DNA of 64,000 nt, from the NCBI GenBank assembly GCA_964568545.1, contig CAZMRE010000001.1, positions 134-64,133 of the forward strand, given 5' to 3'. The translations under genes were made by a program, and so were the position numbers. This document shows positions 271-56,682 of this stretch, piece by piece. Below the pieces are notes generated by a model. The model saw only the letters and a program-made list of their open reading frames with translations, made no database searches and was not told the origin of the DNA. Each line of letters opens with the position of its first letter. The stretch's first letter is position 1. The stretch comes from an uncultured Deferribacteres bacterium (GTDB lineage: Bacteria > Zhuqueibacterota > JdFR-76 > BMS3Abin05).

Positions 271-1272
271 TTACGGAATTTCTAGAACAGCCGCTCCGTT
301 TATCTTGCTTTCCTTAACCAATTGAAGGGCCTTGTTGGCGTCTTTCAACGGAAAAACAGAAATTTCCGTGTGAATGGGGATTTCAGCCGCAATTTTCAAC
401 AATTCTTCCGCATCCTGACGAGTAGCATTGGCCACACTGCGAACCGTTCGTTCATAATAAAGAAGATTGTTGTAATCTATTTCGGGGATTGGCGTCATGT
501 AGATGCCTGCCAGAGCCAACGTACCACCCTTGTCCAGAACGCGAAGCGCTTCTGGAACAAGAGTGCCGGCAGGAGCGAAAATAATAGAGCTATCCATTTT
601 GGCAGGCGGTGTATCCTCAGCTCGTCCGGCCCATTTGGCACCCAATTGCAACGCCAGTTTCTGATGCTCCTCACTGCGCGTGAAGACGTACACATCGCAC
701 CCCCAATGAACCGCAATTTGAATGATTACGTGGGCAGTGGCCCCAAATCCGTACATGCCGAAATTTTGACCCGGTTTAAGCTCGCTTAATTTGAGCGCCC
801 GATATCCGACAACCCCCGCGCACAGCAGAGGAGCCGCCTGAAAATCCGGAAATCCCTCCGGCAAAAAATACGCAAAATCCTGATGAATAATGTGGTACTG
901 CGCGTAGCCTCCATCCACGTGATACCCTGTAAATTTTGCCTGATTACAGAGATTTTCCCGACCCGACGTGCAATATTTGCAGGTACCGCAGGTTGAGTAC
1001 AACCATGGCACTCCCACGCGATCCCCAATTTTGAATCGAGTTACGCCCTTGCCCAGCCGATCTACTGTTCCCACAATTTGATGCCCCGGAATGAGCGGCA
1101 ATTTTGGCAGAGGCAGCTCGCCTTCTACCTCGTGCAAATCGGTGTGGCACACCCCGCAGGCCCTAATCCGAATCCGAATTTCGCCGGGACCCGGCGTGGG
1201 ATCCGGCAAATCCACATATTTCAACGGCTCGGCTTCGATAGGAGCTGGCGCAGAAAACTGCATCGCTTTCAT
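271..1272 (-). CDS. Zinc-dependent alcohol dehydrogenase (medium-chain dehydrogenase/reductase family)
   Basis: 333 aa. It has the catalytic-Zn motif GVCHTDLH, the structural-Zn cysteine cluster CGTCKYCTSGRENLC, and the Rossmann motif GMYGFGATAH. GGAGGA lies 5 nt upstream of the ATG. Confidence 0.85.
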   Translation of the reverse strand: MKAMQFSAPAPIEAEPLKYVDLPDPTPGPGEIRIRIRACGVCHTDLHEVEGELPLPKLPLIPGHQIVGTVDRLGKGVTRFKIGDRVGVPWLYSTCGTCKYCTSGRENLCNQAKFTGYHVDGGYAQYHIIHQDFAYFLPEGFPDFQAAPLLCAGVVGYRALKLSELKPGQNFGMYGFGATAHVIIQIAVHWGCDVYVFTRSEEHQKLALQLGAKWAGRAEDTPPAKMDSSIIFAPAGTLVPEALRVLDKGGTLALAGIYMTPIPEIDYNNLLYYERTVRSVANATRQDAEELLKIAAEIPIHTEISVFPLKDANKALQLVKESKINGAAVLEIP

Positions 1273-1392
1273 TGCAATCCTCCGAATTTTTGGTGAATGG
1301 CTTTTTGAATCCTTATAAATTTATTTCTATTCGATAAATATTTCCAAGAAAAAGAGAAATATTTTTAGTTAACCACCAATTCCCTGTCATGC

Positions 1393-1803
1393 TTAGAACG
1401 ATTTCCACACCCTTGCCAATGAGCGCCCGGGAGCATCGATGTGAATATCCAGAAAATAGCCGATGGGTGTTTCACCAACCGTGTAGCCGGACGCCTCCAG
1501 ACGTTCTTTGGCCCGCCTAAAAACCTCCCGAACCGTCTCTGCCGAAGCCTTGCTTTCCGCCAGGTGCGCAAAAGAATGGAGTACCACATTTTTGGTCTTC
1601 CACTTCCCTGCCAGCCATTTCAGATTCTTAATGACTTTGGTAACCGTGCTTCCAACGGCTTCCGCATCCTTTTCTTCTAGATGTACAAATCCAACCACGG
1701 CATTCTGGAACGAGCCTTCTTCATCCAGATCAGGGACATCTTCCAATCCCTTTGAGGCCGTTTTGTATGAAAAATTATCCATATACCACAATAGTAATTT
1801 CAT
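1393..1803 (-). CDS. Free-standing homolog of the archaeal-type threonyl-tRNA synthetase editing domain (tRNA-Thr_ED, DTD-like fold); putative trans-acting Ser-tRNA(Thr) deacylase
   Basis: 136 aa. The blocks MKLLLWYMDNFSY, VVGFVHLEEKD, NVVLHSFAHLAES and GYTVGETPIGYF match, in the same order and spacing, the blocks I recall from the N-terminal editing domain of Pyrococcus ThrRS (MRVLLIHSDYIEY, LVAFISVEK, VFVYPFAHLS, GFNVGKAPFGYYK). The ATG lies 8 nt after the serA stop, with a GAGG ribosome-binding site. Confidence 0.7.
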   Translation of the reverse strand: MKLLLWYMDNFSYKTASKGLEDVPDLDEEGSFQNAVVGFVHLEEKDAEAVGSTVTKVIKNLKWLAGKWKTKNVVLHSFAHLAESKASAETVREVFRRAKERLEASGYTVGETPIGYFLDIHIDAPGRSLARVWKSF

Positions 1804-1811
1804 TTGAACCT

Positions 1812-2789
1812 CTATTTTAGAATTGCTTCCGGGTTCACCACATTTTCAATCTGTTCTTCTTTGAAGAACTCCACCATCTGCCGGGCCACTTTTGTTGCCA
1901 CCCTGATTTGGGCTTCTACCGTCGATGCCCCGATATGGGGAGTCATAATGACATTCGGCAGTTCGCGCAGGGGACTATCCCTGGGCGGTTCCTTTTCAAA
2001 AACATCCAATGCAGCTCCGGCCACCTGCCCCGATTCCAGTGCCTTGTAGAGCGCTTTTTCGTCAATAATTTCGCCTCGGGCACAATTTATAATTCGGACA
2101 CCCTTTTTGCATTTTGCGAGCGTTTCCTCATTCAGCATGTGATGTGTGTCCTCATTTAACGGCAAGTGAAGCGAAATATAATCCGATTGCACAAGTAATT
2201 CGTTCAACTCCACAATTTTCACGTTGAACGGAACATCCGATTCTGGCCCAAATTTTGGATCGTTGGCAATGACTGTCATCCCAAAGCCGATGCCGCGCTT
2301 GGCCACCTCAACACCAACCATTCCAAGCCCCAGTAACCCCAAGGTTTTACCCATGATTTCATTTCCGCTGAGGCGCTTTTTCCACCATTTTCCCGCCTTT
2401 GTTGAGTTGTTAGCTTCGACCAGGTGGCGTGCCAGCATGAGCATCATGGCCAGAGTTAATTCTGCCACAGAAACGGCATTGGCACCGGGGACATTCATTA
2501 CCGCAATTCCCTTTTCTGTGGCAGCAGCCACGTCGATATTGTCGTAGCCCACGCCCGCTCGTGCAATTAGTTTCAGCCGATTGCCGCTTTCAATGACTTC
2601 GCGTGTCACCTTTACCTTGCTGCGCACAACCATTCCGTCAGCTTCTTTTACGGCTTCCACAATTTCTTCCCGAGGCATTGAGGGGTTAAAAACAACATCA
2701 AAATCCGCCGATTTGAAAATATTAATGCATTCCTGAGGCAAATCATCCGGAATCAAAATTTGAATTTTCTTATCCATTTTATTCTCCAA
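1812..2789 (-). CDS. serA: D-3-phosphoglycerate dehydrogenase, short form without an ACT domain (D-2-hydroxyacid dehydrogenase family)
   Basis: 325 aa. It has the NAD-binding motif GLLGLGMVGVEVA and the catalytic region INCARGEIID...TPHIGAST, next to a class-V aminotransferase gene. Confidence 0.8.
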   Translation of the reverse strand: MENKMDKKIQILIPDDLPQECINIFKSADFDVVFNPSMPREEIVEAVKEADGMVVRSKVKVTREVIESGNRLKLIARAGVGYDNIDVAAATEKGIAVMNVPGANAVSVAELTLAMMLMLARHLVEANNSTKAGKWWKKRLSGNEIMGKTLGLLGLGMVGVEVAKRGIGFGMTVIANDPKFGPESDVPFNVKIVELNELLVQSDYISLHLPLNEDTHHMLNEETLAKCKKGVRIINCARGEIIDEKALYKALESGQVAGAALDVFEKEPPRDSPLRELPNVIMTPHIGASTVEAQIRVATKVARQMVEFFKEEQIENVVNPEAILK

Positions 2790-2853
2790 AAATTATTGAA
2801 ATACGTACTGCTTAAAAAATTTAACTCAATTAACTCGGTGTTACATTGCTACC

Positions 2854-2925
2854 AAAAATATTAACGCCACAAATTCACAATTTTTATTCCGATAAAAATA
2901 CAATTCGGACATTCACGGCCAATTC
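2854..2925 (-). repeat. Interspersed intergenic repeat, family 2, inverted relative to the 55592-55664 copy
   Basis: The reverse complement GAATTGGCCGTGAATGTCCGAATTGTATTTTTATCGGAATAAAAATTGTGAATTTGTGGCGTTAATATTTTT aligns at about 80% identity over about 72 nt with 55592-55664. The last 17 nt (GTGGCGTTAATATTTTT) are identical. It lies between serC and serA. Confidence 0.75.
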
Positions 2926-3045
2926 TATTACCAAAAAACAAAGATTTTTCTGGAAATATTATAAAGTACATCTTTACGTCGGAATAATTCATTATTGTCC
3001 TCACAGACGAAGCACGCACATGGCCTACCATGTTTTTCCAACTTG

Positions 3046-4194
3046 CTATTCCTGAATCATTCGCAAATATGTTTTCTGAAGGGCTAACACGCCTTCGCCG
3101 CCTTTAATCGGCCATCCGACATCCAGCAGAACTTCTTCCAAAATACTGATGGCTGCCAGCATATCCTGAACATCGTAATACCCCAGATGTGAAATGCGAA
3201 AGATTTTCCCCTTTAATTTACCCTGGCCTCCTGCCGCAATAATTCCCTTTTCTTTCAAGCGATTATCAATACCTGCCTCCTGCAAAGAGTCGGGAATTTT
3301 GACAGCCGTGACGGCGTTAGACGGAGAATCGGCTAGCAATTCCAAATCAAGCGCCCGAATTGCGCGTCGCGTTGATTCAGCCAAGATTGCGTGACGTTTC
3401 CAAACGGCTCCCACGCCCTCGGCCTGAATCATTTTCAATGCTTCCAGTAACCCCACAACAAGCGTAACAGCCGGTGTAAATGGCGTGGTTTGATCTTTCA
3501 AAGATTTTCGAGCCTTGCGAAGGTCAAAATAGTACCGCGGCTGCGTAGAGGCTTCTACCGCTTTCCATGCCCGCTGACTGGAAGCAATAAATGCCAGGCC
3601 CGGTGGAAGCATGAGTCCCTTCTGGGAACCTGTAACAACGACATCCACGCCCCAATCATCCATTTTAAGAGGCATGGCTCCAACGGACGTAATGCCATCC
3701 ACAATAATCAGCGCCTCACTTGCATCGTGAATAACCTGGGCCATTTTTTCAAGATCAATCGCGACCCCGGTGGATGTTTCACTGTGCGTTAAAAGAACGG
3801 CTTTGTAATCGGATTTTTTCTGCAATTCTGCACGCATTTCAGCCGGAGTAAATGCCCTCCCCCAGGGAACGGCGATGCGCGTGGCTTTCACGCCATAGAC
3901 GTCACACAGCTCCCCCCACCGTTCGCCAAATTTGCCCCCCTCGATGGTCAAAACCTCGTCACCGGGATTTAAATGGTTGACAACTGCTGCTTCCATGGCT
4001 CCCGTACCGGAGGAGGCCAGCATGTAAACATCTTCTTTTGTCTGAAAAAGCTCCTGCAAAATTTTGGAGGCCTGCATAAAAATATCCGAAAATTCCTTCG
4101 TTCGGTGGTGAAGAATAGGCTCCGCCATCCGATTCGTCACCTTCTCTGGGACCGGCGTTGGCCCCGGTGTAAACAATCGTGCTTTCAAAGTCAT
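3046..4194 (-). CDS. Class-V (AGXT/SerC-like) pyridoxal-phosphate aminotransferase; probably the phosphoserine or serine-glyoxylate aminotransferase of the serine pathway
   Basis: 382 aa. It has FTPGPTPVP at the N-terminus, SSGTGAMEAA, and the PLP-lysine region TGSQKGLMLPPGLA, with serA immediately downstream. GAGGAG abuts the ATG, so the TTG two codons in (at 4188) is an alternative start. Confidence 0.75.
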   Translation of the reverse strand: MTLKARLFTPGPTPVPEKVTNRMAEPILHHRTKEFSDIFMQASKILQELFQTKEDVYMLASSGTGAMEAAVVNHLNPGDEVLTIEGGKFGERWGELCDVYGVKATRIAVPWGRAFTPAEMRAELQKKSDYKAVLLTHSETSTGVAIDLEKMAQVIHDASEALIIVDGITSVGAMPLKMDDWGVDVVVTGSQKGLMLPPGLAFIASSQRAWKAVEASTQPRYYFDLRKARKSLKDQTTPFTPAVTLVVGLLEALKMIQAEGVGAVWKRHAILAESTRRAIRALDLELLADSPSNAVTAVKIPDSLQEAGIDNRLKEKGIIAAGGQGKLKGKIFRISHLGYYDVQDMLAAISILEEVLLDVGWPIKGGEGVLALQKTYLRMIQE

Positions 4195-4815
4195 CTCCTC
4201 TCATTTAATCCGGTTTCGATATACTTTTTGATTTATCTTCAAATTCGAAAATCGCAAAAATAAGTTTCTTCACGAAAATGCGTACATTTTAATCCATTTT
4301 TAAAATGCATTCTAATCACCAAAAAAATCAAATTGAAAAAATACCGGCCCAAAAAATTAGTTGCAAAAATAGGCTCACCCCATTCCACGGAATTACCGTT
4401 TGCCATTTCTTGCTCAAGAAAAAAAGGTTGCTAGTACCATGTGTTTAAAAAGGCAGTCCGCACAATGTGAAAGCTCCTATTTCCAAATCGTCCCTATTTT
4501 CCAGCAATCCATCGGCCCTTGCACCATTTAAAGGCTATTTGAATTTTGCATTCATTTTGCCTTTTTCATTTTACTTTTTTCATTCGTTTCCACTTGCTTA
4601 CTGGATTAAATTACAACATACCTACGCATTATTCGGATGAGCTTAAAATTTTGGGTTAATACCAATTAGCTGCCGGGGAAACTCATTACAATGTCACGAT
4701 CCGCCCCATTTTTACAATGCCTCCGAGGCAGCCTTATTTTGCAATCACCGTTTACCCGCTTCCTATTTTACATGATTTTTGGGGATGTTAGAAAACAAGA
4801 CATCCTTTTCCCAGC

Positions 4816-5406
4816 TCAGGAATTGTCCAGAAATTCATACAGCACCTTCCACAAGATCATTCGTCCGTCCCCGGTTTTGGCAGAAAACGGAATTGCAGGC
4901 GAAACGGTCAATTTCTCTAAATTGGCATTAATTTTCTTGAATTGCTTTGCCTGTTCGTTTCGTGACAGCTTGTCGACTTTTGTGGCAACCACCCGAAATG
5001 AAATCATCACGTGTTTCAGCCACGAAATCATCATTTCATCCAATTCAGTCAGCCCGATGCGGCTGTCCACGATTACAATGGCCCCCCGGAGATTGGACGA
5101 GGCTAAGAGAAACCCCTCAATCAAGGCTTGCCAGCGGCGCTTGGCATCCCTTGAGACTTTCGCAAAGCCGTAGCCCGGCAAATCCACCAGATAAAATTGC
5201 TCATCTATCAGGAAAAAATTGAGGCTTCGCGTTTTGCCAGGTGTGGAACTGATCTTTGCCAATTTTTTTTGATTGAGCATTGCATTGATGAGGGACGATT
5301 TTCCGACATTTGATCGTCCGGCAAATGCAATTTGCGGAAAGCCATCACCCGGCAAATCTTTCAAATCATGCACACTTTTTACAAATCTTGTTTGGTGATT
5401 TTTCAT
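4816..5406 (-). CDS. engB: Ribosome-biogenesis GTPase YihA/EngB
   Basis: It has the G1 motif GRSNVGKSSLIN, the G3 motif DLPGYG and the G4 motif ATKVDK. The start is set at the internal ATG (MKNHQTRF) because the 52-codon upstream extension of the ORF covers the lon terminator region and is not protein-like. Confidence 0.85.
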   Translation of the reverse strand: MKNHQTRFVKSVHDLKDLPGDGFPQIAFAGRSNVGKSSLINAMLNQKKLAKISSTPGKTRSLNFFLIDEQFYLVDLPGYGFAKVSRDAKRRWQALIEGFLLASSNLRGAIVIVDSRIGLTELDEMMISWLKHVMISFRVVATKVDKLSRNEQAKQFKKINANLEKLTVSPAIPFSAKTGDGRMILWKVLYEFLDNS

Positions 5407-5519
5407 TATGAATTTCCAGCCAAACTGAGGACTGAATTCCAAAGCCGAGATGAAATCAACTTTATGTCCAGGCTGCGCCGAAAATATTCTTAAACCACAA
5501 CGCAGCAAACCCCAATTAA

Positions 5520-5536
5520 AAAAATAGTAACGCCAC
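5520..5536 (-). repeat. Partial copy (17-nt core) of the family-2 repeat
   Basis: The minus strand reads GTGGCGTTACTATTTTT, a 16/17 match to the identical 17-mers at 2854-2870 (minus) and 55648-55664 (plus). It sits just downstream of the lon terminator and upstream of engB. Confidence 0.5.
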
Positions 5537-5552
5537 GGACTCAGGTTAATAT

Positions 5553-5581
5553 AAAAAAGCACTCACCTAAGCGGAGAGTGC
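5553..5581 (-). terminator. Rho-independent terminator after lon
   Basis: The minus strand reads GCACTCTCC-GCTTA-GGTGAGTGC (9-bp stem with one mismatch) followed by TTTTTTAT. It starts 44 nt after the lon stop. Confidence 0.7.
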
Positions 5582-5624
5582 ATTCCTTAAATTGTGACAG
5601 GTACCTGATTGTTTGTTTACGATC

Positions 5625-8000
5625 TCAAGAGGTACCTGCCTCTTGAGAAATGGAAAAACCATCCCTCATAGCAAATCTCAACACATCGTCCATGTTTTTA
5701 ATGAATTTTATTTCCAGGTCTTTTTTGATTTTCTGCGGAACCTCTGTCAAATCCTTTTTATTTTGAGCGGGAACCAGTACCGTTTTTATCCCCGCCCGTC
5801 TGGCAGCCAGCAGTTTTTCGTTCAAGCCGCCAATAGGCAGTACGTGGCCCCGAAGCGTAATCTCACCGGTCATGGCTATCTTTCGACAAATAGGCTTGCG
5901 CGTAATCGCAGAAACCATCGCCAGCGCCATCGTGACGCCCGCAGATGGGCCGTCTTTGGGAATAGCACCCTCGGGTACGTGAACGTGAATTTCGTGATCC
6001 TGGAAGAATTTCGGATCAATTCCGAGACGCTTGGCATTGGATCGAATGTAGCTCAGTGCAGCCTGAGCCGATTCCTTCATCACATCCCCAAGATGCCCGG
6101 TTAAAGTCAGGCCCGATTTTCCATCCATGGGCGTTGCTTCAATCATTAAAATATCACCGCCGAACTCCGTCCATGCAAGCCCCACCGCGGCGCCGATCAG
6201 CTCCTCATCTTCAATCGACTTTTCCGGAATTTTAGGTACACCCAGGTAATCTTCCAAATTCTTGGTGGTAATGGCGTAAAAGGTTTTATTTGGATTTGAG
6301 ACAATCTTGCGGGCTACCTTACGGCAAATGGTGGAAATGCTTCTTTCCAGATTGCGAACGCCCGCTTCTCTGGTATATTCCCTGATAATGAGTAAAATTG
6401 CCTGGTCAGAAATCCGAATGTTTTTATCACGCAATCCGGTTTCTTTCATCTGTTTGGGCAGAAGAAATTGCTTGGCTATTTCCAGCTTGTCGTATTCCAT
6501 GTAGCCCGGCAGCTCGATGATTTCCATTCGATCTAAAAGCGGCGGCGGAATATTGTATCGCACATTGGCAGTCGTAATGAACATGACTTCCGACAGATCG
6601 AATTCCACTTCCAGATAATGGTCGCTGAATGTTTTGTTTTGCTCAGGGTCCAGCACCTCTAGCAAGGCCGCCGAGGGATCCCCCCGAAAATCCATGCTCA
6701 TTTTGTCGATTTCATCCAATAAAAACACAGGGTTTCGGCTGCCTGCTTTTTTGAGCGATTGAATAACTCGACCCGGCATAGAGCCAATATACGTCTTCCG
6801 GTGTCCTCGAATTTCGGCTTCGTCGCGCACCCCGCCCAGGGAAACACGTACAAAATTCCGGCCAATTGCCCGCGCAATGGAGCGCCCCAGCGATGTTTTG
6901 CCCACACCCGGAGGCCCGACCAAACATAGAATGGGCCCTTTGACACGCTTCACCAGTTTCATAACCGCCAGATGTTCCAGCACTCTCTCTTTCGCCTTTT
7001 GCAGCCCATAGTGATCGGAATCGAGCGTTTTTTGAACCCGATCCATATTAAGGCTGTCCCGCGTACGCTTCTTCCAGGGCAGAGCCAGGAGCCAATCCAA
7101 ATAATTTCGGGTAACCGTGTACTCCGGTGACATCGTGGGTGTAAATTTCAGCCGGTCAATCTCTTCAAAAGCTTTTTCACGAACCTCTTTCGGCATACCC
7201 GCCTTTTCGATTTTATCGATCAAAAGCTGAACATCGCCAATAACTTCATCTTCCTCGCCCAGTTCCTGTTTGATCACCCGAAGCTGTTCCTGCAGATAAT
7301 AGCTTCGCTGCGATTTCTGCATGCGATCGCGCACCTTGTCTTCAATGGTGCGTTCGATTTCCAGGATTTCTTTTTCGGATTCCAAAATCCGCGATAGCTC
7401 CACCAGCTCCTTGTTCAAATCCCTTACTTCAAGAAGCTTCTGTTTATCGGATAATTTTTTCGTTACATGAGCAGCAATAAAATCTGCAATCCGCTGCGGG
7501 TTTTCCAGACTTTCTACGGTGAGAACCAGCTCGTCGGGAACATCGCGATTAAGTAAAATGTATTCTTTGAATAGATTTAGCACGTGCCGAAGTCCGGCCT
7601 CAACCGTTGCATCCGATTGAAGTGTTTCCGGAACCAGATCGATTGTGGAACGATAGAAATCTTCCACCTTTAAAAAACGCTTAACACGCGCACGGATAAT
7701 GCCTTCCACCAAGACCTTAATAAGTCCGTTCGGAAGCTTTAAAATCTGTAAAACACGCGCAATAACGCCCACGCGATACAAATCTCTTGCAGAAGGGTTC
7801 TCTTCCTGAATATCTTTCTGAGCCACCAGGAAAATGAGCTTATCCGTCATAAGGGCTTCCTGTAGGGCATGGGTTGAAGACTCCCGCCCCACCAGAAGCG
7901 GGTAAATCATATAAGGAAAAACTACCGTCTCCTTTAACGGAAGTACCGGTAGTTTATCGTTTAATTCAATGGTAATGTCTTCTCGTTTAATTCTTTGCAT
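5625..8000 (-). CDS. lon: ATP-dependent Lon protease (LonA)
   Basis: 791 aa. It has the Walker A motif GPPGVGKTS, the Walker B motif FLLDEIDK, and the protease Ser site [10 protein letters not shown], with a LON N-terminal domain. Confidence 0.95.
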
Positions 8001-12533: not shown

Positions 12534-13715
12534 CTACAAAAGCTTATGTTTGATAAATTGCAGTTCGCTTCGGCTGAAAAAAAGCCTTCGGGGCCTTGCC
12601 TTTGTCTGAGCTTCCGCCGAAACGTGCTGTCCTTCATCCGCCGGAAGCTCTGCCTCAACGGGGGCAATCTGGGTAAAGAAATTTTGAATCGCCTCAAAGG
12701 TTCGATCGATGAGATTATCTTCCGGGAGCTCCTCTTGATTTTCCCGGGGTTCGGCATGAAATGATTTTTCCTGCATTGGAAGATGAAAAGAAGCGGATTC
12801 CCTCAAAACTCCCAATTGGTACAGCCGGATAATTTCCCGAAGAGCGGCTAATTCATCCAACAGACTTTCATCCAAAATATCCTGAATGGTGTGCTCTGCA
12901 TCCACGTGGGACAAAATTTCCTGGGTGTCTTCATTTATTTCATCCGGGAAAAGATCCCTCACGTGCTCAAAAACGGTGTCGATAGGAGGCAAGCGGGTAA
13001 GAAGCTGTTCTTTTTCATCCAAAAGTTGAATACTCGTTTGAACAATTTCTTGCACGGGATGGAAAATAGCCTGTTCGCGAAGGATCGCTTGAAAAGTTGC
13101 CGAAAATGTTCCCTCCACCCAGAGAACCAATTGGTAGAGAGCCGCTTCTCCTCTCAGAACACCTAGTTCAGCGTCCCAGACCATTCCTTCTTTAATGTAC
13201 AAACTGCCTTCCAAAGCTCCCCTGCTCAATGTAATAATCCCCGATTTTTTACCCAGCTCAAATGTTTGAATAAGGTCAATTGCATTCATTTCCGAAAGCA
13301 GCCCGTTGAAGCCCTGGAATTCAGCCGCATGTGTTTGCTTCAATCGATCTCTTTCCCGTAGCAGCATTCGGATTCGGTAGAGCAATTCTTCCATTTCGAA
13401 GGGCTTTTGAATAAAATCGTCCACACCGCTCTCAATGAGACGGATTCGCTTTTCAACATTTTCTTCATCACTCAAGGCAATAAACAGCATATTTTTTGTT
13501 CGAGGCACCTCGCGAAGCTGTCGGATCCAATGAATAAAATCGCCGTTAGGCAAATGGGCTTCGGCTACAACAATCTGAGGAGAAAAGGATTCCAGCAGAT
13601 CCTGGGCATCTTTGAGTGTGGATGCGAATCTGCTTTCAAAGTCATTGATGCTCTCCAGATCTTGAAAATCGTTTGCTAGTTCTTTCTCTGGCTCAATGAA
13701 AAGAATTTTATTCAC
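12534..13715 (-). CDS. Atypical receiver (REC-like) plus PATAN/DUF4388 domain protein
   Basis: 393 aa with a GTG start. The REC-like N-terminus keeps the K (IQKPF) and the S/T position (FIALSD). It has IEPE in place of the acidic DD pair and VVAEAHLP in place of the phospho-acceptor Asp. The DUF4388 signature is FNGLLSEMNAIDLIQTFELGKKSGIITL...GSLYIKEGMVWDAELG..GEAALYQLVLW. Confidence 0.7.
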   Translation of the reverse strand: MNKILFIEPEKELANDFQDLESINDFESRFASTLKDAQDLLESFSPQIVVAEAHLPNGDFIHWIRQLREVPRTKNMLFIALSDEENVEKRIRLIESGVDDFIQKPFEMEELLYRIRMLLRERDRLKQTHAAEFQGFNGLLSEMNAIDLIQTFELGKKSGIITLSRGALEGSLYIKEGMVWDAELGVLRGEAALYQLVLWVEGTFSATFQAILREQAIFHPVQEIVQTSIQLLDEKEQLLTRLPPIDTVFEHVRDLFPDEINEDTQEILSHVDAEHTIQDILDESLLDELAALREIIRLYQLGVLRESASFHLPMQEKSFHAEPRENQEELPEDNLIDRTFEAIQNFFTQIAPVEAELPADEGQHVSAEAQTKARPRRLFFSRSELQFIKHKLL

Positions 13716-13732
13716 CGACTCTTGCTCCCAAC

Positions 13733-15322
13733 TTAATTCGTTACTCGTTTTTCACCAAGACTGAACGAAATTTTTTCTTCCTCCGGGTAGGGAGAATACA
13801 TATTTAGCAAAATCATTTTTGCGTTTTCTTTGTCCTTCGGATCACAGGGAATAATCTCTTCGTAACTTTCCAGACCCAACCGCTGGGAAATCTCCTCAAT
13901 GCCCAATGCTTTTTGATGCCGAAGATTTGTTACCGCTACGGCATACGGAAGCTGAAAACGTACCCGAAAAGATTTTATCAGATAATTTATGTAATCCAAA
14001 CTTTCTGCCTCGGTTGCATCCACCAGAAAAACGTAGCCTAGCATGTTGGATGCAATGGAATGAATAATGGCTTTGACCTGTTTTTCGATGGGAATTCCAA
14101 TCAAGAGAATCCTTTTTTCATTGAAAAGATTCAATTTTCCAATATCGAGAGGATGTGGAAAAACCCTTTTCATGGAACGGGTTCGGTAACCTTTTCCAAC
14201 TAACGCCCGCACAAATTCACTCTTTCCACTATCAACCGTTCCCAAAATCACCAGGTAGGGTTCATCGAGAGGCATCTTTTTAAATACTCGTTTCTGGAAG
14301 GATTCGAATTCTTCTTCGCTAAAAAGTGGTTCCAGGACTTCTTCTTCAGCGGGAACTTCTTCCGGCTCGGGAATTTTGATTTCCTCCAAAAATCCCTGCT
14401 GGTACATTTTTACGATTCGCCTCAGTGTGGTAAGATCGTCATTGAAACTGTCATCCAGAATTTTAAGAACCGGGCGTTTGCCGTCGAACAATTCCACAAA
14501 TTTAATGACATCCGGCGCTACCGGGCGTTCTTCCAGATGTTTCAGAAAATGTGCTTTTACTGAAAAAATAGCGTATGGCCCGGGCAGTTTACTCAAAAGA
14601 TCGCGACGCTGTCGAAGGCGTTCATATCCCTGTAACAAAAGGCCAAGATTACTAATTGAAATCTCATCTTCCATATCCACTTGCTGTGGCACAAGGGAGG
14701 TGTGTCCCTTTGCCCAGGGAAACATTTGGTAAACGGCTCGTTCGCCCCTGAATCCCCCCAGAATTGCATTCACAACCGCACCGTTGCGAAAAAATATCTG
14801 CCCACTCTTTTTAAATTCATTGGTCACATTCACAATTCCAGACCAGCGCCTAACCCCAAGTCTGGCAATCAACTCTGCCACAATTTTGTCTTTCAGATTC
14901 CCCTGACTTCTCGCCCCCTCATCTGAGTCGCCCGATTGCATGCGCTGAAGCCGATTTAGAATCATTTTTACCCGTGCAACAATTTCTGCCACGTGCAGGG
15001 GCTTCATCATGTAATCCTGCACGCCCAGTTCAAAGGCCTTTACTCTATTCTGAAGACCGTTCTGTGCCGTTAGAAAAATAACCGGGATACCTTCGGTTTT
15101 CTCATTTTCCTTGAGATTTTGTAAAAGCGCCACGCCGTTGAGATCCGGTAAATCGGCATCCGTAATGATCAAATCCGGCTGGTATTTTTCCGCTTTTTCC
15201 AGCGCATCGTAGCCATTCTCCGCTGTACTCACTTGGAAACGATTGCTAACTAGCTCCCGAACGAGAATTTCGATGTTTTGAGCATCGTCATCTACAATTA
15301 GAATTGTTTTTGCTTGTGCCAT
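13733..15322 (-). CDS. Response-regulator receiver plus PATAN/DUF4388 plus C-terminal P-loop GTPase-like domain fusion protein
   Basis: 529 aa. The REC domain is canonical (LIVDDD, IITDADLP, FLTA, MMKP). The DUF4388 signature is GNLKDKIVAELIARLGVRRWSGIVNV...GQIFFRNGAVVNA..GERAVYQMFPW. The C-terminal domain has Walker A ILGTVDSGKS, then GYVFLVD and AVTNLRH. Confidence 0.75.
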   Translation of the reverse strand: MAQAKTILIVDDDAQNIEILVRELVSNRFQVSTAENGYDALEKAEKYQPDLIITDADLPDLNGVALLQNLKENEKTEGIPVIFLTAQNGLQNRVKAFELGVQDYMMKPLHVAEIVARVKMILNRLQRMQSGDSDEGARSQGNLKDKIVAELIARLGVRRWSGIVNVTNEFKKSGQIFFRNGAVVNAILGGFRGERAVYQMFPWAKGHTSLVPQQVDMEDEISISNLGLLLQGYERLRQRRDLLSKLPGPYAIFSVKAHFLKHLEERPVAPDVIKFVELFDGKRPVLKILDDSFNDDLTTLRRIVKMYQQGFLEEIKIPEPEEVPAEEEVLEPLFSEEEFESFQKRVFKKMPLDEPYLVILGTVDSGKSEFVRALVGKGYRTRSMKRVFPHPLDIGKLNLFNEKRILLIGIPIEKQVKAIIHSIASNMLGYVFLVDATEAESLDYINYLIKSFRVRFQLPYAVAVTNLRHQKALGIEEISQRLGLESYEEIIPCDPKDKENAKMILLNMYSPYPEEEKISFSLGEKRVTN

Positions 15323-34467: not shown

Positions 34468-37400
34468 CTAGGGCTTAAGCACACGATTCAAAAGAAAGGC
34501 CTGTTTTTCAATTTCCTTTTCGAGATTGATCTCTTCCCGCTTTACCGATTCACTCACTTTCTGAATGGTCGCTTTTCGCAAGAGTTGAATTTGAAAGATC
34601 GCTCGCATGCCTTTCCGAGTACTGTCTGTGTCTGTCACGTGAATAGCTACGACATTCTTTCCTTGCCGGATGAACTCATTGACATTCACAGGGAAAACTT
34701 GCTTCCACCCTAATGTATCGGCTTTTTCCTGAAAAACCTTTACGCCGTTTATAAAAATTTCCATATTGTCATCAGCTTGAATTTTAAGTTTGGAAGACAC
34801 CGGAATATCACTGATATCAAACGCTTTTTTGAAATACAATTCCGCCGGATAAGCTTCGTGGGCGGCAAGATGGAAGGCTCTTGGAGCAGCCTTTTGCGAG
34901 GAATCCACCGCAACCGTGTCAGCAAACACTGTATCCATTTTCATTGGAATATTCATGCTGTAGGCCATCTTCCCTGGGAACAGAGCTTTTCCCGCAGAAT
35001 CCCACGCCATTTTCTGTGCGTGCATCCAGGAGGAATCTGGAGGGGTGTTCTGGATCCAGTTGGAATCAACCTTCGTGCTGACCAGCCATGAGGTGTCAGC
35101 AGGCACGTACACGGAATCGGTAGACACCGCAAATTCCTTGGCGTACGTGACAGGATCTAATTCAATTAGGAGACTGGACAAATTGCTAACCGCCAGGCTT
35201 TGCAAATTATGGGATTTTTTATAATCGTACGCATCCGCAGCAATTTCAAGAGCGGCGTCGTGCAAAGAATTAAAATTATCGGAATAGGTGTAGATGGCGT
35301 CTTCGTACTCAGGCATTGGCTCCTTTTGATTCAGCGCAGAAAAATAATCCTTCAATGCCCGCGCAGAATCCGCTTCAATTTTGTAAGTGTCGGCGATTTG
35401 GTAGGTGTTTTCCAGATAATCATTCATTCCCTGTTCGGCATATTTATCCGGGAAATTGTGTTTGAGAAAATTATCCAACTCCCACTGGTAAAATCGTGTC
35501 ATGATTTGCGTGTATTTCTTTCCCAAATCAATTACATTTAACAAATCTCCAGCCAAATTGAGGGCGCCCTCTTTTTCACTGTCAGAGCCTTTTGTCATTA
35601 TTTTATAATAGCGGTGTTTCATTTTCCGGTACGTGTCGATTGTTCCCATGGCCAGCTCGTAATATTTTGCGGGAAGAATTTTAAATACCTGCAGCAGCTT
35701 TTTCCGCGAACGCGCAACCCATCTATTTTCCAGTTCAAGCGAATCGGCTTCATTGATATTACGAAGATGAGCCTGAACAATTTTATCCACCGTTGGCTTA
35801 ACGGCCTTTAGATACACCTGATTTTTGTACTCCAATATAGCCACGGGATCGAGGCCATCAGGAATGGGTGCCGACAAAATCTGTTCGATGGACGCAAAAT
35901 TGAGATCCGCAATGCGGTACAGCATTTCGGATGTCTTTTCACCCGAACGTGTGACCCATCGTTTCATCACCCGCAATGTGCTGTCCTTTTCTGCCACTCG
36001 AATAGAATGCCTGTGGATAGAATCGCCAGACGTTGTGTCCGAAAGGGCCGTTGAATCTGAAGCGGTCGGTGCGGCAGCATTCTCAAGCTTTCTCAACAGA
36101 ATAACAGCCGAGCGGTAGGAAGCGTGAGCTTTTTCATACAATTGCGCAGACATTTGATGGATTTTTGTCCGGTACACAATCTGTCGTGTTTTGTCCATTT
36201 GAGGGATTTCCTGAGAGTTCCAAGTATTGGCAAATTCCTCGTAAACCTTGCCAATGTCATACGTGGCTTCGTACAACCGAATGGTACCATACGCCGCCAC
36301 CTGTTCATACTGAGAGACCAGTTGTTTCAACAGCTCTTTCTTCTGCTTTTTCTGGGCATCCATATTTGCCAGCGTGAATCGGATTTTTTTGTAATCATTG
36401 TACATTAATTCCGATTTCAGGAAAAGAGCCTCTGCCGCGTAGAAATCATTTGTTTTAAGATTTTTGGATTTCAATTCTGTGTTCCGCTGCAACGCCCGAT
36501 TGAATTCCACAATGGCCTGGTCATGTTCCCCCTTATTCATAAAATATTCGCCGCGTTTGTAAAATGTTTCCACGCCTCGGGGCGAATCCGGGTACTTCAT
36601 CCCGAATTCATCCCAAATTCTGTTTGCCTGATCCAGATCATCTAACTTCAAATAGTACTCAGCCATGTTGTAAAACATATTTTCCGCATCGGAAGATTTT
36701 GGGTACGTTTCCACGTACTGCTTGTTAATCCGAATCGCATTTCGCCAGTCCTTTGCCTTGACCGAGAAAAAACTGGCATTGTACAGTGCATCCTGCGCTT
36801 TTGCCGAATCCGGCGTAACCTTCCAGAGTTTCTCATAAGTATTGGCTGCGTATTTGTACTCTTTCAATTCACCATAATCCAGTGCCAGGTTGTTCATGGC
36901 ATCCAGGTAGTATTTGGATGAAGGAAAATGATCAATCAAATATTGGTAGGCTTCCACCGCCTGATTGTATTCCGAAACCTTATCGTACTCCACCGCCGAT
37001 TGGTAGAGCGACAAATCAGCAAATTTGGCGTTCGGAACCTCTTTAACAACCCTCCGGTATTCCTTTGCCGCTGCCAGATGATTCCCGCTATCCGCCAATG
37101 CCTGGGCATGCATAAAAATCGATTCAGACATGCGTCTGACCGCTTTCTTTTTTACAGCTTCAGGAACATTCTTGCTCAATTGAATTTTTTTCGCCATCAA
37201 TTCGGCGCTCACAAAATCCTGCTTTCCAAAATAGCTTTCCATTGCCGTGAATTGAGCCTGAGTAAGCTCCGGACTATCCGGAAAACGCTGAATAAGCGTG
37301 TTAAAATACGTCAGAGCTTCCTCAAAGTGCTTTTTATTGTAGAACAAAATTCCGGCATTAGCCAATGCTACCGAAGCATCTTTGTCCTGCGGAAACAGTT

Positions 37401-39144
37401 TAATGAAATTATCGTAGGCTTCAATGAGGCGTTTCTCATCAGCATTCAGCGTATCAGGCTTCACCGGCTTAAGACCGACCGCATTCTTTTGACGAGCAGC
37501 CATTTTCTGAAAATCGCTAATTTTACTGGTGTCGCTGCCAGCCGTTTTCAATGGTTGAGCATGGTGTTTTTTCAAAATTTCATTGGCAACTGCAATGGCA
37601 TTTTGAGCGGCATCCTTTCGATACTTGTCCTTTGTATAATCAAAGGCAATCTTTTCATATTCCCTAAAAGCCTCATCATCCCGATTTAATTTGGTGTCCA
37701 AAACGAGGGCCATGTTCCAGTGAATCGTGTAAGCCAGCGAATCATCAGGAAAGTATTTCAGATAAATGCGGCTGTTTTTTACCGCCTGTTGATAATAGTC
37801 CAGGGAAGAATCCTTCTCCGCATCCGTGAGAAGTCGATTAATATTTTCTTGCATAGTTTTCTTCACCAGTTCGGTTGCTTCCCGAATGGCTTTTCTTCGG
37901 AGGAGAGGATTGGGAATTTTTTTCTGCATCGCCTTAGACCATTTGCTTCCGGGATGAAATTTCAGAAACATTTCCCGCTGGGCTTGATACACGCCGTTAG
38001 TATCTTCCAAGCGCTTAAATGACTTAACGATTTCATTCTGGATTTGCGGCGCCTCCGGTGCATCCGGATAATAATGCAGGATGGCGTTATACGTCGCGAT
38101 GGCTCTCAGAAACTTTTCTTCATCAACTTCGTAAACGTCTCCCAATTTTTTTAAAATATGAACACCGTAATCGGGATAGTTTAAATCAGCTAAATATTTC
38201 AGCGCCTCGTCAAGGCCGCCGTAATCGTGGAAACAAATGCCAATGTAATCCAGCGATTCATCTTCAAGAGAGGGGTTGGAATAGGTGCCGTTGTAGTCAA
38301 CGGGTTTTGTCTTCTCAATATCTTGCACGGCTGCCGTAAAGGATGCAATTGCTGAGGGGAAATCTCCCTTTAAATAGTTGGCCCAGCCAATCTTGTACAA
38401 CGCCTCATCGTAGCGCGGCGTGTCTTTGTATCTTAGAACCAATTTATAGTATTTAATGGCTTCGTCGTAGTTTTTTACAGAGGGACTGAAATAATATTCC
38501 CCGATCTGCATAAGGGCTTCGGGAGCATATTTGCTTTTGGGATATTTTGAAGCAATTTCGCGATAATAACCTACAGCATCCACAAACTTCCCTTGTTTGC
38601 CCAAGATGTAGGCCAAATTATAGAGGGCATCGTCGTACAAACTGCTGTTCGGAAAATTATCTACAATAAGGCGATATTTTTCCAGTGCCTTGGAATAATC
38701 AATTTTAGGTTCCTCAGGGGGATTGGGACGCAAGCCCTTTTCATAGTCAGAATAAGCCTTATCATACGCATCCATTTTCTTGAGAAAGGTTTCATCCGCC
38801 TGCTGAAAATAAAACTCGCCCAAACGCAAAAGAATTTTGTCGACAAAATGACTGTTAGGATTTTCGGTTAGCAGTTTTTCCACATTCTGGATATTCTTCT
38901 CACGAAGCAATTTTTTTTCGCGCTGCAAGCGATTAATTTCGTTTTTGTAGTATTCACGAAACTTGATCAGATCCTCAGCCGAAAATGTTTTAACCAGGGA
39001 ATCCAACAGCGTTTGATGAGATGATTTCTCCCCTTTTTCAATTAGCGTTTCCTGAGCAAAACTATTTTTGCCCAAAAATATAATTAGGGCCATACTCAAA
39101 AACACGATGGCCTTTCTCCATCCCTGGAATCTACGATTTTCCAT
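34468..39144 (-). CDS. Giant secreted TPR-repeat protein (about 1558 aa) with a C-terminal beta-sandwich-like domain
   Basis: The start is set at MENRRFQGWRKAIVFLSMALIIFLGKNSFA|QE (signal peptide). The longer ORF start would overlap the upstream gene by 149 nt. There are dozens of A/Y/L-patterned 34-residue repeats (e.g. YDDALYNLAYILGKQGKFVDAVGYYREI). The last 150 or so residues (KIQADDNMEIFINGVKVF...NVVAIHVTD) resemble a galactose-binding-like fold. Confidence 0.75.
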   Translation of the reverse strand: MENRRFQGWRKAIVFLSMALIIFLGKNSFAQETLIEKGEKSSHQTLLDSLVKTFSAEDLIKFREYYKNEINRLQREKKLLREKNIQNVEKLLTENPNSHFVDKILLRLGEFYFQQADETFLKKMDAYDKAYSDYEKGLRPNPPEEPKIDYSKALEKYRLIVDNFPNSSLYDDALYNLAYILGKQGKFVDAVGYYREIASKYPKSKYAPEALMQIGEYYFSPSVKNYDEAIKYYKLVLRYKDTPRYDEALYKIGWANYLKGDFPSAIASFTAAVQDIEKTKPVDYNGTYSNPSLEDESLDYIGICFHDYGGLDEALKYLADLNYPDYGVHILKKLGDVYEVDEEKFLRAIATYNAILHYYPDAPEAPQIQNEIVKSFKRLEDTNGVYQAQREMFLKFHPGSKWSKAMQKKIPNPLLRRKAIREATELVKKTMQENINRLLTDAEKDSSLDYYQQAVKNSRIYLKYFPDDSLAYTIHWNMALVLDTKLNRDDEAFREYEKIAFDYTKDKYRKDAAQNAIAVANEILKKHHAQPLKTAGSDTSKISDFQKMAARQKNAVGLKPVKPDTLNADEKRLIEAYDNFIKLFPQDKDASVALANAGILFYNKKHFEEALTYFNTLIQRFPDSPELTQAQFTAMESYFGKQDFVSAELMAKKIQLSKNVPEAVKKKAVRRMSESIFMHAQALADSGNHLAAAKEYRRVVKEVPNAKFADLSLYQSAVEYDKVSEYNQAVEAYQYLIDHFPSSKYYLDAMNNLALDYGELKEYKYAANTYEKLWKVTPDSAKAQDALYNASFFSVKAKDWRNAIRINKQYVETYPKSSDAENMFYNMAEYYLKLDDLDQANRIWDEFGMKYPDSPRGVETFYKRGEYFMNKGEHDQAIVEFNRALQRNTELKSKNLKTNDFYAAEALFLKSELMYNDYKKIRFTLANMDAQKKQKKELLKQLVSQYEQVAAYGTIRLYEATYDIGKVYEEFANTWNSQEIPQMDKTRQIVYRTKIHQMSAQLYEKAHASYRSAVILLRKLENAAAPTASDSTALSDTTSGDSIHRHSIRVAEKDSTLRVMKRWVTRSGEKTSEMLYRIADLNFASIEQILSAPIPDGLDPVAILEYKNQVYLKAVKPTVDKIVQAHLRNINEADSLELENRWVARSRKKLLQVFKILPAKYYELAMGTIDTYRKMKHRYYKIMTKGSDSEKEGALNLAGDLLNVIDLGKKYTQIMTRFYQWELDNFLKHNFPDKYAEQGMNDYLENTYQIADTYKIEADSARALKDYFSALNQKEPMPEYEDAIYTYSDNFNSLHDAALEIAADAYDYKKSHNLQSLAVSNLSSLLIELDPVTYAKEFAVSTDSVYVPADTSWLVSTKVDSNWIQNTPPDSSWMHAQKMAWDSAGKALFPGKMAYSMNIPMKMDTVFADTVAVDSSQKAAPRAFHLAAHEAYPAELYFKKAFDISDIPVSSKLKIQADDNMEIFINGVKVFQEKADTLGWKQVFPVNVNEFIRQGKNVVAIHVTDTDSTRKGMRAIFQIQLLRKATIQKVSESVKREEINLEKEIEKQAFLLNRVLKP

Positions 39145-39181
39145 ACAATGACTCTCGTTTAAAATGCTGTCGCCTAAGGTT

Positions 39182-55022: not shown

Positions 55023-55496
55023 TTATCGAAACGAATACACGTAACCAATCTTAAAATAATTGAAAATCCCTGTGTATCCGCTATTATTCTTGAAAAATAT
55101 CGGCACACGCACTTCGGCGAAAAGATTTTTCCACTCAACATTGTACCCGTAACCCATGTAAACTTGCAAATTGGAAACACTGTGGCCAGACTGGCCATAT
55201 CCTACCATGTGGAATACGCTGTGGGTAAAATTTGAGCCTTCAAAAATTTTTATGAAAAATGCAAGCTCCACGCCGTTGGGGGCGCCGTCATTCGACCCCG
55301 TGTAAATTCCTGATAGTCTCATGGCATAATTTGAAAAATGAACTGCCGTAGAAAGATTAACACCAGCAGGCGCCCCGAAAGAACTTCCAACGGATAAATA
55401 CCTGTGTTCCAAACTCAACCGATAATTCTGTGCATTGGCAATACCGGAAAACACCGAAACAAAAAGAGCCATTGCTACAAACGTTCGTTTAAACAT
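55023..55496 (-). CDS. Small outer-membrane beta-barrel protein
   Basis: 157 aa. It has a signal peptide ending IANA|QN and alternating hydrophobic/aromatic strand pattern. The C-terminus is GYVYSFR. The ribosome-binding site is GAGGAGG. Confidence 0.6.
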   Translation of the reverse strand: MFKRTFVAMALFVSVFSGIANAQNYRLSLEHRYLSVGSSFGAPAGVNLSTAVHFSNYAMRLSGIYTGSNDGAPNGVELAFFIKIFEGSNFTHSVFHMVGYGQSGHSVSNLQVYMGYGYNVEWKNLFAEVRVPIFFKNNSGYTGIFNYFKIGYVYSFR

Positions 55497-55591: not shown

Positions 55592-55664
55592 GAATTAGCC
55601 GCGAATGCGCAAATTATATTTTTTTTTCGAATAAAATTCGTGAATCTGTGGCGTTAATATTTTT
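55592..55664 (+). repeat. Interspersed intergenic repeat, family 2 (full-length copy)
   Basis: GAATTAGCCGCGAATGCGCAAATTATATTTTTTTTTCGAATAAAATTCGTGAATCTGTGGCGTTAATATTTTT aligns with the reverse complement of 2854-2925. Sub-segments recur at 30835-30855 and 5520-5536. Confidence 0.75.
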
Positions 55665-55758: not shown

Positions 55759-56682
55759 TTACCGGCTGTAAATCAGATTCAGAAGAACCTGTCCCACAAT
55801 CTTCAGGCTTTTGGCAGAGCATTTGTCCGGCGTATCGCCAAGAGTGTGCCAATACGGGTAATCGAAATCGATCACGTCGATGCTGGGAATTCCCACTTCC
55901 AGAAGAGGCAAATGATCGTCGATAATTGTGTAGCGTACATCAGGAATAAATTGTGTGTAACCCAATTTGCCAGCAATTCCCCAAACTACGTTCACCACAT
56001 CCGGGGCATAACTGGCAGAATTGCCTTCCTCATAAATCTGCAAATCGCGGTCGCCAATCATGTCTAACAAAATGCTGAATTCAGGATTGTAGGATGGCGA
56101 TTTGTGCTGCGCAAAATAGCGGGAACCCTGCAAATATTCATCCGAATGCTCCTCCCGGCCAGAATCTTCGCCGTCCCACAAAGCCAGATCAACTCCCACA
56201 GGAGGGGGATTTTCTTTTAGATGCCGGGCAATTTCAAGCAGAACCGCTACTCCGGACGCCCCGTCGTTCGCACCGAGAATGGGTGTATTTCGATTTTTCG
56301 GATTCGGGTCGTGATCGGCCCAGGGGCGGGTATCCCAGTGGGCGGCCAAAAGAATTCTGCGATTTTTATGCCCGAATGAAGCAATAATATTGTGCAGCGT
56401 CAGGTGGAGATTATCTTTGTAGTTCACGAATGGAAAGGGCTGCAGACGCACTTGATCCGCAAATTTTGAAAACTCCCGTACCAGGTATTTCTGCGCCTTT
56501 TCGTGCCCGATTGAGCCGGGATTTCGCGGCCCAAAATCACATTGCTTCACCAGATAAGTGTAAGCACGCTGACCATCAAATGTGGGAATGGTTTGAGCGG
56601 AACAACTTGCCGCGATAAGCCAAATTCCCAAAAATAGCCACACATTCCTGATGTACTTTTTTCTTTTCATTGTTTGCTCCAT
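55759..56682 (-). CDS. M28-fold glutaminyl-peptide cyclotransferase-like protein (glutaminyl cyclase type)
   Basis: 307 aa. It reads LLAAHWDTRPWADHD...TPILGANDGASGVAVLLEIARHL...VDLALWDGEDSG, the metal-ligand pattern of animal/Bacteroidetes-type glutaminyl cyclases. The N-terminus IAASCSAQT is either a lipobox or a signal peptidase I site. Confidence 0.7.
   Translation of the reverse strand: MEQTMKRKKYIRNVWLFLGIWLIAASCSAQTIPTFDGQRAYTYLVKQCDFGPRNPGSIGHEKAQKYLVREFSKFADQVRLQPFPFVNYKDNLHLTLHNIIASFGHKNRRILLAAHWDTRPWADHDPNPKNRNTPILGANDGASGVAVLLEIARHLKENPPPVGVDLALWDGEDSGREEHSDEYLQGSRYFAQHKSPSYNPEFSILLDMIGDRDLQIYEEGNSASYAPDVVNVVWGIAGKLGYTQFIPDVRYTIIDDHLPLLEVGIPSIDVIDFDYPYWHTLGDTPDKCSAKSLKIVGQVLLNLIYSR

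Follow-up and report, generated by a model that had tools for sequence, protein, structure and literature searches.

A free-standing relative of the archaeal threonyl-tRNA synthetase editing domain encoded directly after serA in an uncultured Deferribacteres bacterium

A stretch of 64,000 nucleotides (nts) from an uncultured Deferribacteres bacterium (GenBank assembly GCA_964568545.1, contig CAZMRE010000001.1, positions 134 to 64,133; hereafter the window) encodes a protein of 136 amino acids (aa), here called ED, which is homologous to the editing domain at the N-terminus (NTD) of threonyl-tRNA synthetase (ThrRS) from archaea and whose gene directly follows a serA-like gene. ED belongs to a class of proteins that forms a distinct branch of the DTD-like fold and a sister type to the archaeal NTD. 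With moderate confidence, we propose that ED is a homodimeric acyl-tRNA deacylase acting in trans, that its specificity is unlike that of the archaeal serine pocket and that it is co-transcribed with serA in this lineage. We document here the homology, fold, family signature, distribution, operon structure and purifying selection of this gene. An earlier interpretation made from the sequence alone (the sequence-only reading) had proposed a proofreader of Ser-tRNA(Thr) whose capacity is coupled to serine supply, a proposal which is weakly supported.

The Pfam family PF08915 (tRNA-Thr_ED) matches ED over its full length with E=7.2e-36 and 123.7 bits (cutoff 30.2), the alignment pairing residues 1-135 with positions 1-136 of the 137 in the profile. 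In NCBIfam, ED aligns with the N-terminus (first ~130 residues) of both archaeal threonine-tRNA ligase and Ser-tRNA(Thr) hydrolase, and a sequence search of the PDB returns archaeal ThrRS editing domains only (E about 1e-13). An AlphaFold (AF2) model calculated from 30 homologues (pLDDT 92.3) was superposed with Foldseek on the NTDs of P. abyssi, M. jannaschii and A. pernix at TM-scores of 0.88-0.92 and a root-mean-square deviation of about 1.8 Å. The best match, at TM 0.92, is the P. abyssi ThrRS NTD, followed by the DTD fold at about 0.7. Because the Pfam, NCBIfam and PDB matches and the model superposition agree, the match to the archaeal editing domain noticed in the sequence-only reading is correct. 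Its description as free-standing also holds, since the open reading frame (ORF) of 136 aa runs between the serA stop and a stop of its own, and homologues are likewise ~136 aa long. The ratio of non-synonymous to synonymous substitution rates (dN/dS) against relatives is about 0.04, with synonymous sites near or at saturation; this is a genuine gene, subject to strong purifying selection.

ED thus shares family and fold with the archaeal ThrRS editing domain (P. abyssi 1Y2Q and 2HL1; M. jannaschii 4RRF) at 25-26% identity, with the difference that it is not fused to a synthetase. The crenarchaeal ThrRS-ed/ThrRS-2 (Korencic et al. 2004; Aeropyrum pernix 4RR6) acts in trans and has the same fold, but this enzyme is about 400 aa long, carries an anticodon-binding domain and has the archaeal Y-P...Y-K...E site (proteins P0244, P0254 and P0280), whereas ED is a bare domain with a different signature. 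Like ED, DTD and its animal paralogue ATD are free-standing proteins of the DTD-like fold in which the place of archaeal Lys121 is taken by a non-polar residue, Met in the case of DTD. Membership of ED in the DTD or DTD2 families was considered and rejected: neither DTD (PF02580, Tyr_Deacylase) nor DTD2 matches ED at E<=0.1 in Pfam, the SQFTL and NxGPVT (Gly-cisPro) motifs are absent, and similarity to DTD is limited to 7-11% identity and a TM-score of about 0.7.

The active site sets ED apart from the archaeal enzymes. The alignment of 212 near-full-length sequences to the family profile separates cleanly into a class of 175 sequences that includes ED, named the HS class after its invariant His76-Ser77, and an archaeal class of 33 sequences that includes all of the long synthetases. 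All but two of the HS-class sequences (173/175) are no longer than 160 aa. Every HS-class sequence (175/175) has H76, S77 and L81, and 174/175 have F78 and H80, where the archaeal type reads Y-P-Y-A-H-L. A basic helix formed by K59, K62, W63 and K67, each present in 157-169 of the 175 sequences, is an additional motif (K..KW...K) which is unconserved in the archaeal class. Positions 117-118 are mostly F followed by L, N or C in the HS class, lysine at 118 occurring in 0/175, as against Y-K in the archaeal class (K in 32/33). At position 131, 174/175 HS-class sequences carry R or K and none carries E, which is found in 29/33 archaeal-type sequences, and G126 is followed by G-x-[S/P] in place of the archaeal G-H-P. 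Expressed in archaeal numbering, Y79-P80 is replaced by H76-S77, Y120-K121 by F-[L/N/C] and E134 by R/K. In contrast, the residues on the adenosine side (E43, D46, H80, P113, G115 and Y/W116) are common to both classes; F78 and L81 are kept as well, and the P113-x-G115-[YW]116 motif is intact.

ED itself carries H76 S77 F78 A79 H80 L81, the helix residues K59 K62 W63 K67, F117 L118 and R131. Its motif reads VVLHSFAHL, and it is 41-63% identical to 29 family members. In the P. abyssi NTD (PabNTD), the side chains within 6 Å of the scissile bond are Pro80, Phe81, Ala82, His83, Tyr120, Lys121 and the cross-subunit Glu134, the last of which holds the substrate alpha-NH2; catalysis comes from the 2′-OH of the tRNA rather than from side chains (Ahmad et al. 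2015, PMC4491819). ED does not match this archaeal set (Pro80, Phe/Tyr81, Ala82, His83, Tyr120, Lys121 and cross-subunit Glu134), as four of the seven PabNTD side chains differ, including those at the Lys121 and Glu134 positions. On the basis of these residues, the HS class appears to retain the catalytic scaffold with a differently charged acyl-group pocket. This pocket is conserved in its own right and bears the opposite charge at position 131, a pattern that speaks for selection on another contact and against drift.

Since Lys121 is never present and Glu134 is replaced by R/K, editing of Ser-tRNA(Thr) cannot be assumed, and the sequence-only reading, which took this activity as given, is unsupported on this point. 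The changed pocket would weaken the claim that ED edits Ser-tRNA(Thr) and would leave the assignment to NTD/DTD-type deacylases untouched. The earlier model, in which ED is a trans-acting deacylase of Ser-tRNA(Thr), or of seryl-tRNA in general, and proofreading is scaled to serine supply, is therefore regarded as rather unlikely. It draws on the homology and near-identical fold shared with the archaeal editing domain, and on the finding that archaeal specificity tolerates the loss of Tyr120 and Glu134: the Y120A/E134A mutant retains Ser/Thr discrimination, which rests on main-chain atoms (PMC4491819). The P-x-G-Y backbone motif is kept in ED. However, the Lys-to-Met mutants K121M, K116M and K122M of three archaeal NTDs are severely compromised (PMC4491819), and the conserved opposite charge at the Glu134 position argues against a neutral change. 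In addition, no thrS was found in the window, where Pfam scans of the large ORFs gave AspRS and HisRS only, or within about 6-10 kb of 104 related copies (935 kb of flanks searched by tblastn with the catalytic parts of archaeal ThrRS). Bacterial ThrRS normally carries an N2 editing domain of its own, which also speaks against this model. The genomic arguments on both sides of this model depend on the serA linkage and are given with it below.

The mechanism that we favour keeps the deacylase chemistry and alters the acyl pocket. A homodimer would work in trans, with the 3′ end of an acylated tRNA as its target. A76 would be bound in the conserved adenosine pocket formed by E43, D46, H80 and P113-x-G115-Y116, and the ester would be hydrolysed by the substrate-assisted route established for the fold, using the 2′-OH of A76 and a water molecule. 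The basic helix K59, K62, W63, K67 probably gives the tRNA affinity that is supplied in archaeal enzymes by the anticodon-binding domain. The acyl pocket would present Leu in place of Lys121 and Arg in place of the cross-subunit Glu134, hence the physiological substrate is probably not simply Ser-tRNA(Thr). In a more specific version of this mechanism, the HS class represents a new specificity within the DTD-like fold, comparable to ATD, and the charge-reversed pocket targets acyl-tRNAs that lack a free protonated amine, such as alpha-hydroxyacyl- or N-modified aminoacyl-tRNAs; in the window lineage, where the gene is paired with those of a serine-type aminotransferase and a 2-hydroxyacid dehydrogenase, the substrate would then carry a hydroxy analogue of serine (glycerate- or hydroxypyruvate-derived) and not serine. 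We consider this extension improbable.

Pfam gives PF08915 the title “Archaea-specific editing domain of threonyl-tRNA synthetase”, and the sequence-only reading treated the domain as archaea-specific and its free-standing form as a rarity. Neither holds. The restriction is a matter of the Pfam label only, and at least 578 species-representative bacterial genomes encode the free-standing form in a scan of one genome per GTDB species. The best 80 of these other-species loci, which were used for the survey of gene neighbourhoods, span, among other phyla, Calditrichota, Cloacimonadota, Ignavibacteria, Bacteroidota, Zixibacteria, Desulfobacterota, Atribacterota, Thermotogae, WOR-3, Aminicenantes, Nitrospirae, Fermentibacteria and Bipolaricaulota, organism labels of metagenome-assembled genomes being used as deposited. 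Judging from these labels, the carriers appear to be mostly anaerobic bacteria; the HS class also occurs in some archaea. Among the matches listed, 120/120 close homologues are about 136 aa long, and those with names come from Caldithrix, Acetothermia, Bacteroidales, Chlorobi, Marinilabiliales, Anaerolineae and Binatia. When 1.84 billion representative sequences were searched with a profile, 1108 proteins passed E<=1e-3. The ~100 highest-scoring ones are free-standing and about 136 aa long, and neither full-length archaeal ThrRS (613-723 aa) nor ThrRS-ed (about 400 aa) turns up above about 97 bits. A scan of metagenome contigs with the single ED protein gave 2 loci.

The free-standing form has also been catalogued before. 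NCBI names three of the homologues (P0047, P0104 and P0112) “threonyl-tRNA synthetase editing domain-containing protein”, and Mukai et al. 2017 (mBio, Text S1, Fig. S4, Data Set S1) listed and discussed free-standing “tRNA-Thr-ED” homologues, reported that the residue equivalent to M. jannaschii Glu135 is not conserved in them and proposed that they hydrolyse “aminoacyl-tRNAs or hydroxyacyl-tRNAs”. Their data set contains 30 LHSFAHL sequences, including Caldithrix abyssi WP_006930409, Desulfovibrio africanus, Bacteroidales and Sunxiuqinia, as well as the archaea Methanosphaerula and Thorarchaeota. These proteins are of the same family as ED, at about 136 aa, with LHSFAHL and without the Glu135 of M. 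jannaschii or Glu134 of P. abyssi. ED fits the description of the free-standing tRNA-Thr-ED (~130-140 aa, LHSF[A/N/T/S]HL, a residue other than Glu at Glu134/135) and shows no structural difference from the published set, of which it is a lineage-specific member with 63% identity to the nearest named sequence; its position after serA is a context absent from the 2017 description. In our literature searches, the bacterial proteins are mentioned only in the 2017 and 2022 papers of the Mukai and Soll laboratories. Hence the free-standing bacterial form and its missing Glu have been known since 2017. The present analysis adds an explicit signature for the two classes, with the K..KW...K helix and a Lys121 that is missing from every HS-class sequence, as well as the extent of the distribution, a serA operon restricted to one lineage, and the recurrent cobB, methyltransferase, cca and asnS-arfB contexts described below.

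In the window, ED is the last gene of a minus-strand unit, which is laid out as follows.

4195..4815, minus strand: intergenic region 5′ of the aminotransferase gene, 621 nts, AT-rich
4194..3046, minus strand: aminotransferase, class V, 382 aa (ORF call)
2790..3045, minus strand: spacer between the aminotransferase gene and serA, 256 nts, AT-rich, holding a ~75-nt repeated element
2789..1812, minus strand: SerA-like 2-hydroxyacid dehydrogenase, 325 aa (ORF call)
1804..1814, minus strand: serA stop TAG (1814-1812) and 8-nt spacer, AGGTTCAA (direct sequence reading)
1803..1393, minus strand: ED, free-standing tRNA-Thr-ED homologue of the HS class with a DTD-like fold, 136 aa, last gene of the unit (PF08915, AF2, Foldseek, dN/dS)

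The ATG of ED lies at 1803, 8 nts after the serA TAG at 1814-1812, as the sequence-only reading had stated, and a Shine-Dalgarno-like GAGG at 1812-1809 is located 5 nts ahead of it. Adjacency of serA and ED was found in all 14 loci of a close clade (among them L081-L091, L103 and L104), in which ED is 81-95% identical, SerA 73-88% and EngB 64-81%. The serA-ED junction in this clade is a gap of 8-9 nts or an overlap of 4 nts, the latter in L083 and L087-L090. The 8-nt gap with GAGG in the window and the 4-nt overlap in relatives support operon-like coupling: in this lineage, ED is most likely co-transcribed with serA and probably translationally coupled to it. The clade is not shallow, as its synonymous sites are at or near saturation with dN/dS of about 0.04. 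ED is clearly the best conserved of the three proteins: that of the window is 90-91% identical to that of L087 and L083, as against 73-76% for SerA and 64-69% for EngB in the same genome pairs.

Outside this clade, the linkage disappears. Neither serA nor a class-V aminotransferase gene is adjacent to ED in any of the 80 other-species loci (tblastn, about +/-6 kb), where a single weak 2-Hacid_dh match lies 4.5 kb from ED in L044, and neither gene adjoins ED in any of 11 further distant loci (0/11). Being confined to the close clade and absent elsewhere, the serA coupling represents one evolutionary event kept in one family-level lineage. The adjacency is hence not private to this genome, a case that the sequence-only reading had regarded as fatal, but it comes near to it, and of the serine link proposed there the operon-like coupling within the clade stands, whereas a general link does not (0/91 more distant loci). 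For the Ser-tRNA(Thr) model, the tight junction in 14/14 loci with saturated synonymous sites is a favourable observation and the 0/80 and 0/11 counts are unfavourable. In our proposed explanation, it is in this lineage alone that ED came to be the terminal gene of an aminotransferase-serA-ED unit, with its translation coupled to that of serA; the arrangement is compatible with, but no demonstration of, a serine-related substrate in the clade.

The functional meaning of the serA position is a question separate from the activity of ED. The juxtaposition could be a historical accident, in which a housekeeping ED gene came to lie last on the serA transcript of a single ancestor, and we consider this a serious possibility that falls somewhat short of an even chance. 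It is suggested by the highly variable neighbourhood of the family, in which even the commonest neighbour family occurs in only 15/80 loci, by the single clade and hence single event to which the serA link traces, and by the genes 3′ of ED, which differ even within the serA-linked clade. The junction, however, has remained tight (8-9-nt gap or 4-nt overlap) while SerA fell to 73% identity and synonymous sites became saturated, and the other spacers of the unit range from 19 to 621 nts.

Several features of the unit and its surroundings were recorded alongside. The 621-nt and 256-nt spacers of the window compare with 52 nts in L081 and with 19-63 nts in relatives such as L081 and L087; both (4195-4815 and 2790-3045) have a GC content of about 0.38-0.41 and contain no convincing ORF. 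The 621-nt region is presumed to be the promoter or regulatory region of the unit, and the 256-nt spacer may hold a candidate promoter for serA-ED. Rfam gave no match over 1200-5000 at the gathering threshold or at E<=1, with no T-box or riboswitch leader, and a terminator and promoter scan gave no stronger signal than in shuffled sequence. The ~75-nt AT-rich intergenic element (core AAAAATATTAACGCCACAnATTCAC...CATTCnCGGCnAATTC) occurs in two copies of about 82-85% identity in the window, at 2854-2925 in the aminotransferase-serA spacer and, inverted, at 55592-55664 between the ORFs 55023..55496 and 55759..56682; this element may represent a small repeat or a site for a regulator. Downstream of ED, a zinc alcohol dehydrogenase gene (271..1272) takes the next position in the window, as it does in L103. 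In other relatives, this position is held by a conserved protein of 185-203 aa with no Pfam or NCBIfam match (10396-11007 in L087-L090 and 3480-4037 in L083), whose gene overlaps that of ED by 16 nts in L087-L090.

The two upstream genes are compatible with a role in serine metabolism. The SerA-like protein contains the Pfam domains 2-Hacid_dh and 2-Hacid_dh_C and is a short form without an ACT/ASB domain. Its best NCBIfam model is the phosphoglycerate dehydrogenase (PGDH) TIGR01327, with 393 bits against a cutoff of 454, the shortfall being due to the missing C-terminal ACT/ASB domains, and in the PDB it is matched best by PHGDH catalytic domains (E about 3e-88). The aminotransferase matches Pfam Aminotran_5 (E=7e-31); its best NCBIfam model is BhcA-like (338 bits, below the cutoff), SerC models reach only E of about 1e-7 to 1e-9, and the PDB entries closest to it are serine-glyoxylate and serine aminotransferases (E about 1e-58). 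By these matches, it is predicted to be a class-V enzyme of the AGT/serine-glyoxylate type, not of the SerC type. The sequence-only reading placed ED downstream of a SerC-like aminotransferase, which is accurate as to position and loose as to name. Class-V enzymes of the AGT type act as phosphoserine aminotransferase in Methanococcales, so a role in serine biosynthesis is plausible, as either a phosphoserine or a serine aminotransferase. Together, the putative aminotransferase and the SerA-like protein would fit serine synthesis or the conversion of serine to hydroxypyruvate to glycerate.

In the wider family, other neighbours recur. A small SAM methyltransferase gene lies upstream of ED in 15/80 loci, and in 14/80 one of the three genes downstream encodes a CobB-type NAD-dependent deacylase. 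The ED-cobB gap is -4 to +7 nts in loci labelled Cloacimonadota, Fermentibacteria, Melioribacteraceae and Desulfobacteraceae, and the cobB neighbours score as NAD-dependent protein deacylases above the subfamily cutoff. ED is followed at once by cobB in L008 (2996-4141), L010 (6001-7146), L020, L022, L040, L046, L066, L072 (6013-7163) and L073 (2918-4070). In these loci, ED is often preceded by genes for a small UbiE/CpaM-like SAM methyltransferase and a major facilitator superfamily (MFS) transporter, and the ED-cobB pairing is more widespread than serA-ED.

Such loci raise the possibility that the substrate is not a tRNA at all but a ribose ester such as the 2′/3′-O-acyl-ADP-ribose produced by CobB, giving ED a role like that of macro-domain esterases, with R/K131, K134 and K59/62/67 binding the diphosphate. 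The close ED-cobB spacing in four labelled groups and the subfamily-level scores of the cobB products agree with this idea, and with the charge at the amino-group site reversed, a free alpha-amine loses its contact. The pocket of this fold, as judged from published structures, would nevertheless expect the ester on the ribose of the adenosine itself, unlike O-acyl-ADP-ribose. Moreover, the adenosine pocket keeps the residues conserved in the tRNA enzymes, no cobB is adjacent to ED in the window, and other lineages place ED beside cca, asnS and arfB. We therefore consider this substrate very unlikely.

These last neighbours support a role on tRNA. The next relatives of ED (57-63% identity, Calditrichaceae) have the order tmk-ctpB-cca-ED, and the cca-like neighbour provides a link to the tRNA 3′ end. 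In Calditrichaceae, ED directly follows a PolyA_pol/HD gene whose best NCBIfam model is CCA tRNA nucleotidyltransferase (386 bits against a cutoff of 439). The cca-like gene overlaps ED by 1-4 nts in L001, L005, L006 and L021 (about 4619-6411, by our own ORF calls) and is separated from it by 81 nts in L092 (4537-6411) and L094 (called genes). An Anaerolineae-like lineage (L096-L099, 3647-6025) carries asnS-ED-arfB, a translation quality-control neighbourhood in which asnS encodes AsnRS (532 bits, above the cutoff) and lies 16 nts from ED, and arfB encodes a ribosome-rescue peptidyl-tRNA hydrolase.

Four points weigh against the proposed deacylase with a specificity of its own. The side-chain differences are no proof of changed specificity, because discrimination by the archaeal enzyme survives Y120A/E134A through main-chain atoms; literature searches found no biochemical study of any HS-class member; cobB (Sir2), the neighbour that recurs most often across phyla, is not a translation gene; and the persistence of the serA coupling while synonymous sites diverged to saturation gives some evidence of a link to serine.

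The host of the window is bacterial, and the sequence-only reading was right to call ED a bacterial gene. Genes for trigger factor, ClpXP, Lon and an F-type ATPase lie near the ED locus, close-clade relatives carry tig-clpP-clpX-lon-engB directly upstream of the unit, and the window proteins include SpoIID, the F-type ATPase and a bacterial-type AspRS with a GAD domain. The best named relatives of this AspRS are from bacterium BMS3Bbin03 (81%), candidate division KSB1 (68%) and Calditrichota (62-63%). A link to SepRS/SepCysS, as for archaeal-type tRNA-Thr-ED, was considered and rejected: no such genes occur among the immediate same-strand neighbours scanned with Pfam. Elsewhere, at 12534-15322, 34468-42199 and 56927-63094, the window holds two adjacent response regulators with DUF4388 and three very large ORFs (1620, 1005 and 2055 aa).

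The window adds one member of a catalogued family together with a lineage-specific operon arrangement, and its analysis yields a clear diagnostic signature. If the HS class is active with a specificity of its own, a widespread trans-editing factor would join DTD, ATD, AlaX, ProXp/YbaK and CtdA, and the supposedly archaea-specific NTD branch of the DTD fold would have diversified outside ThrRS. The family is a good and cheap target for the tRNA-editing field, and the serA-linked copy described here is one of the few contextual hints to the substrate of the HS class.

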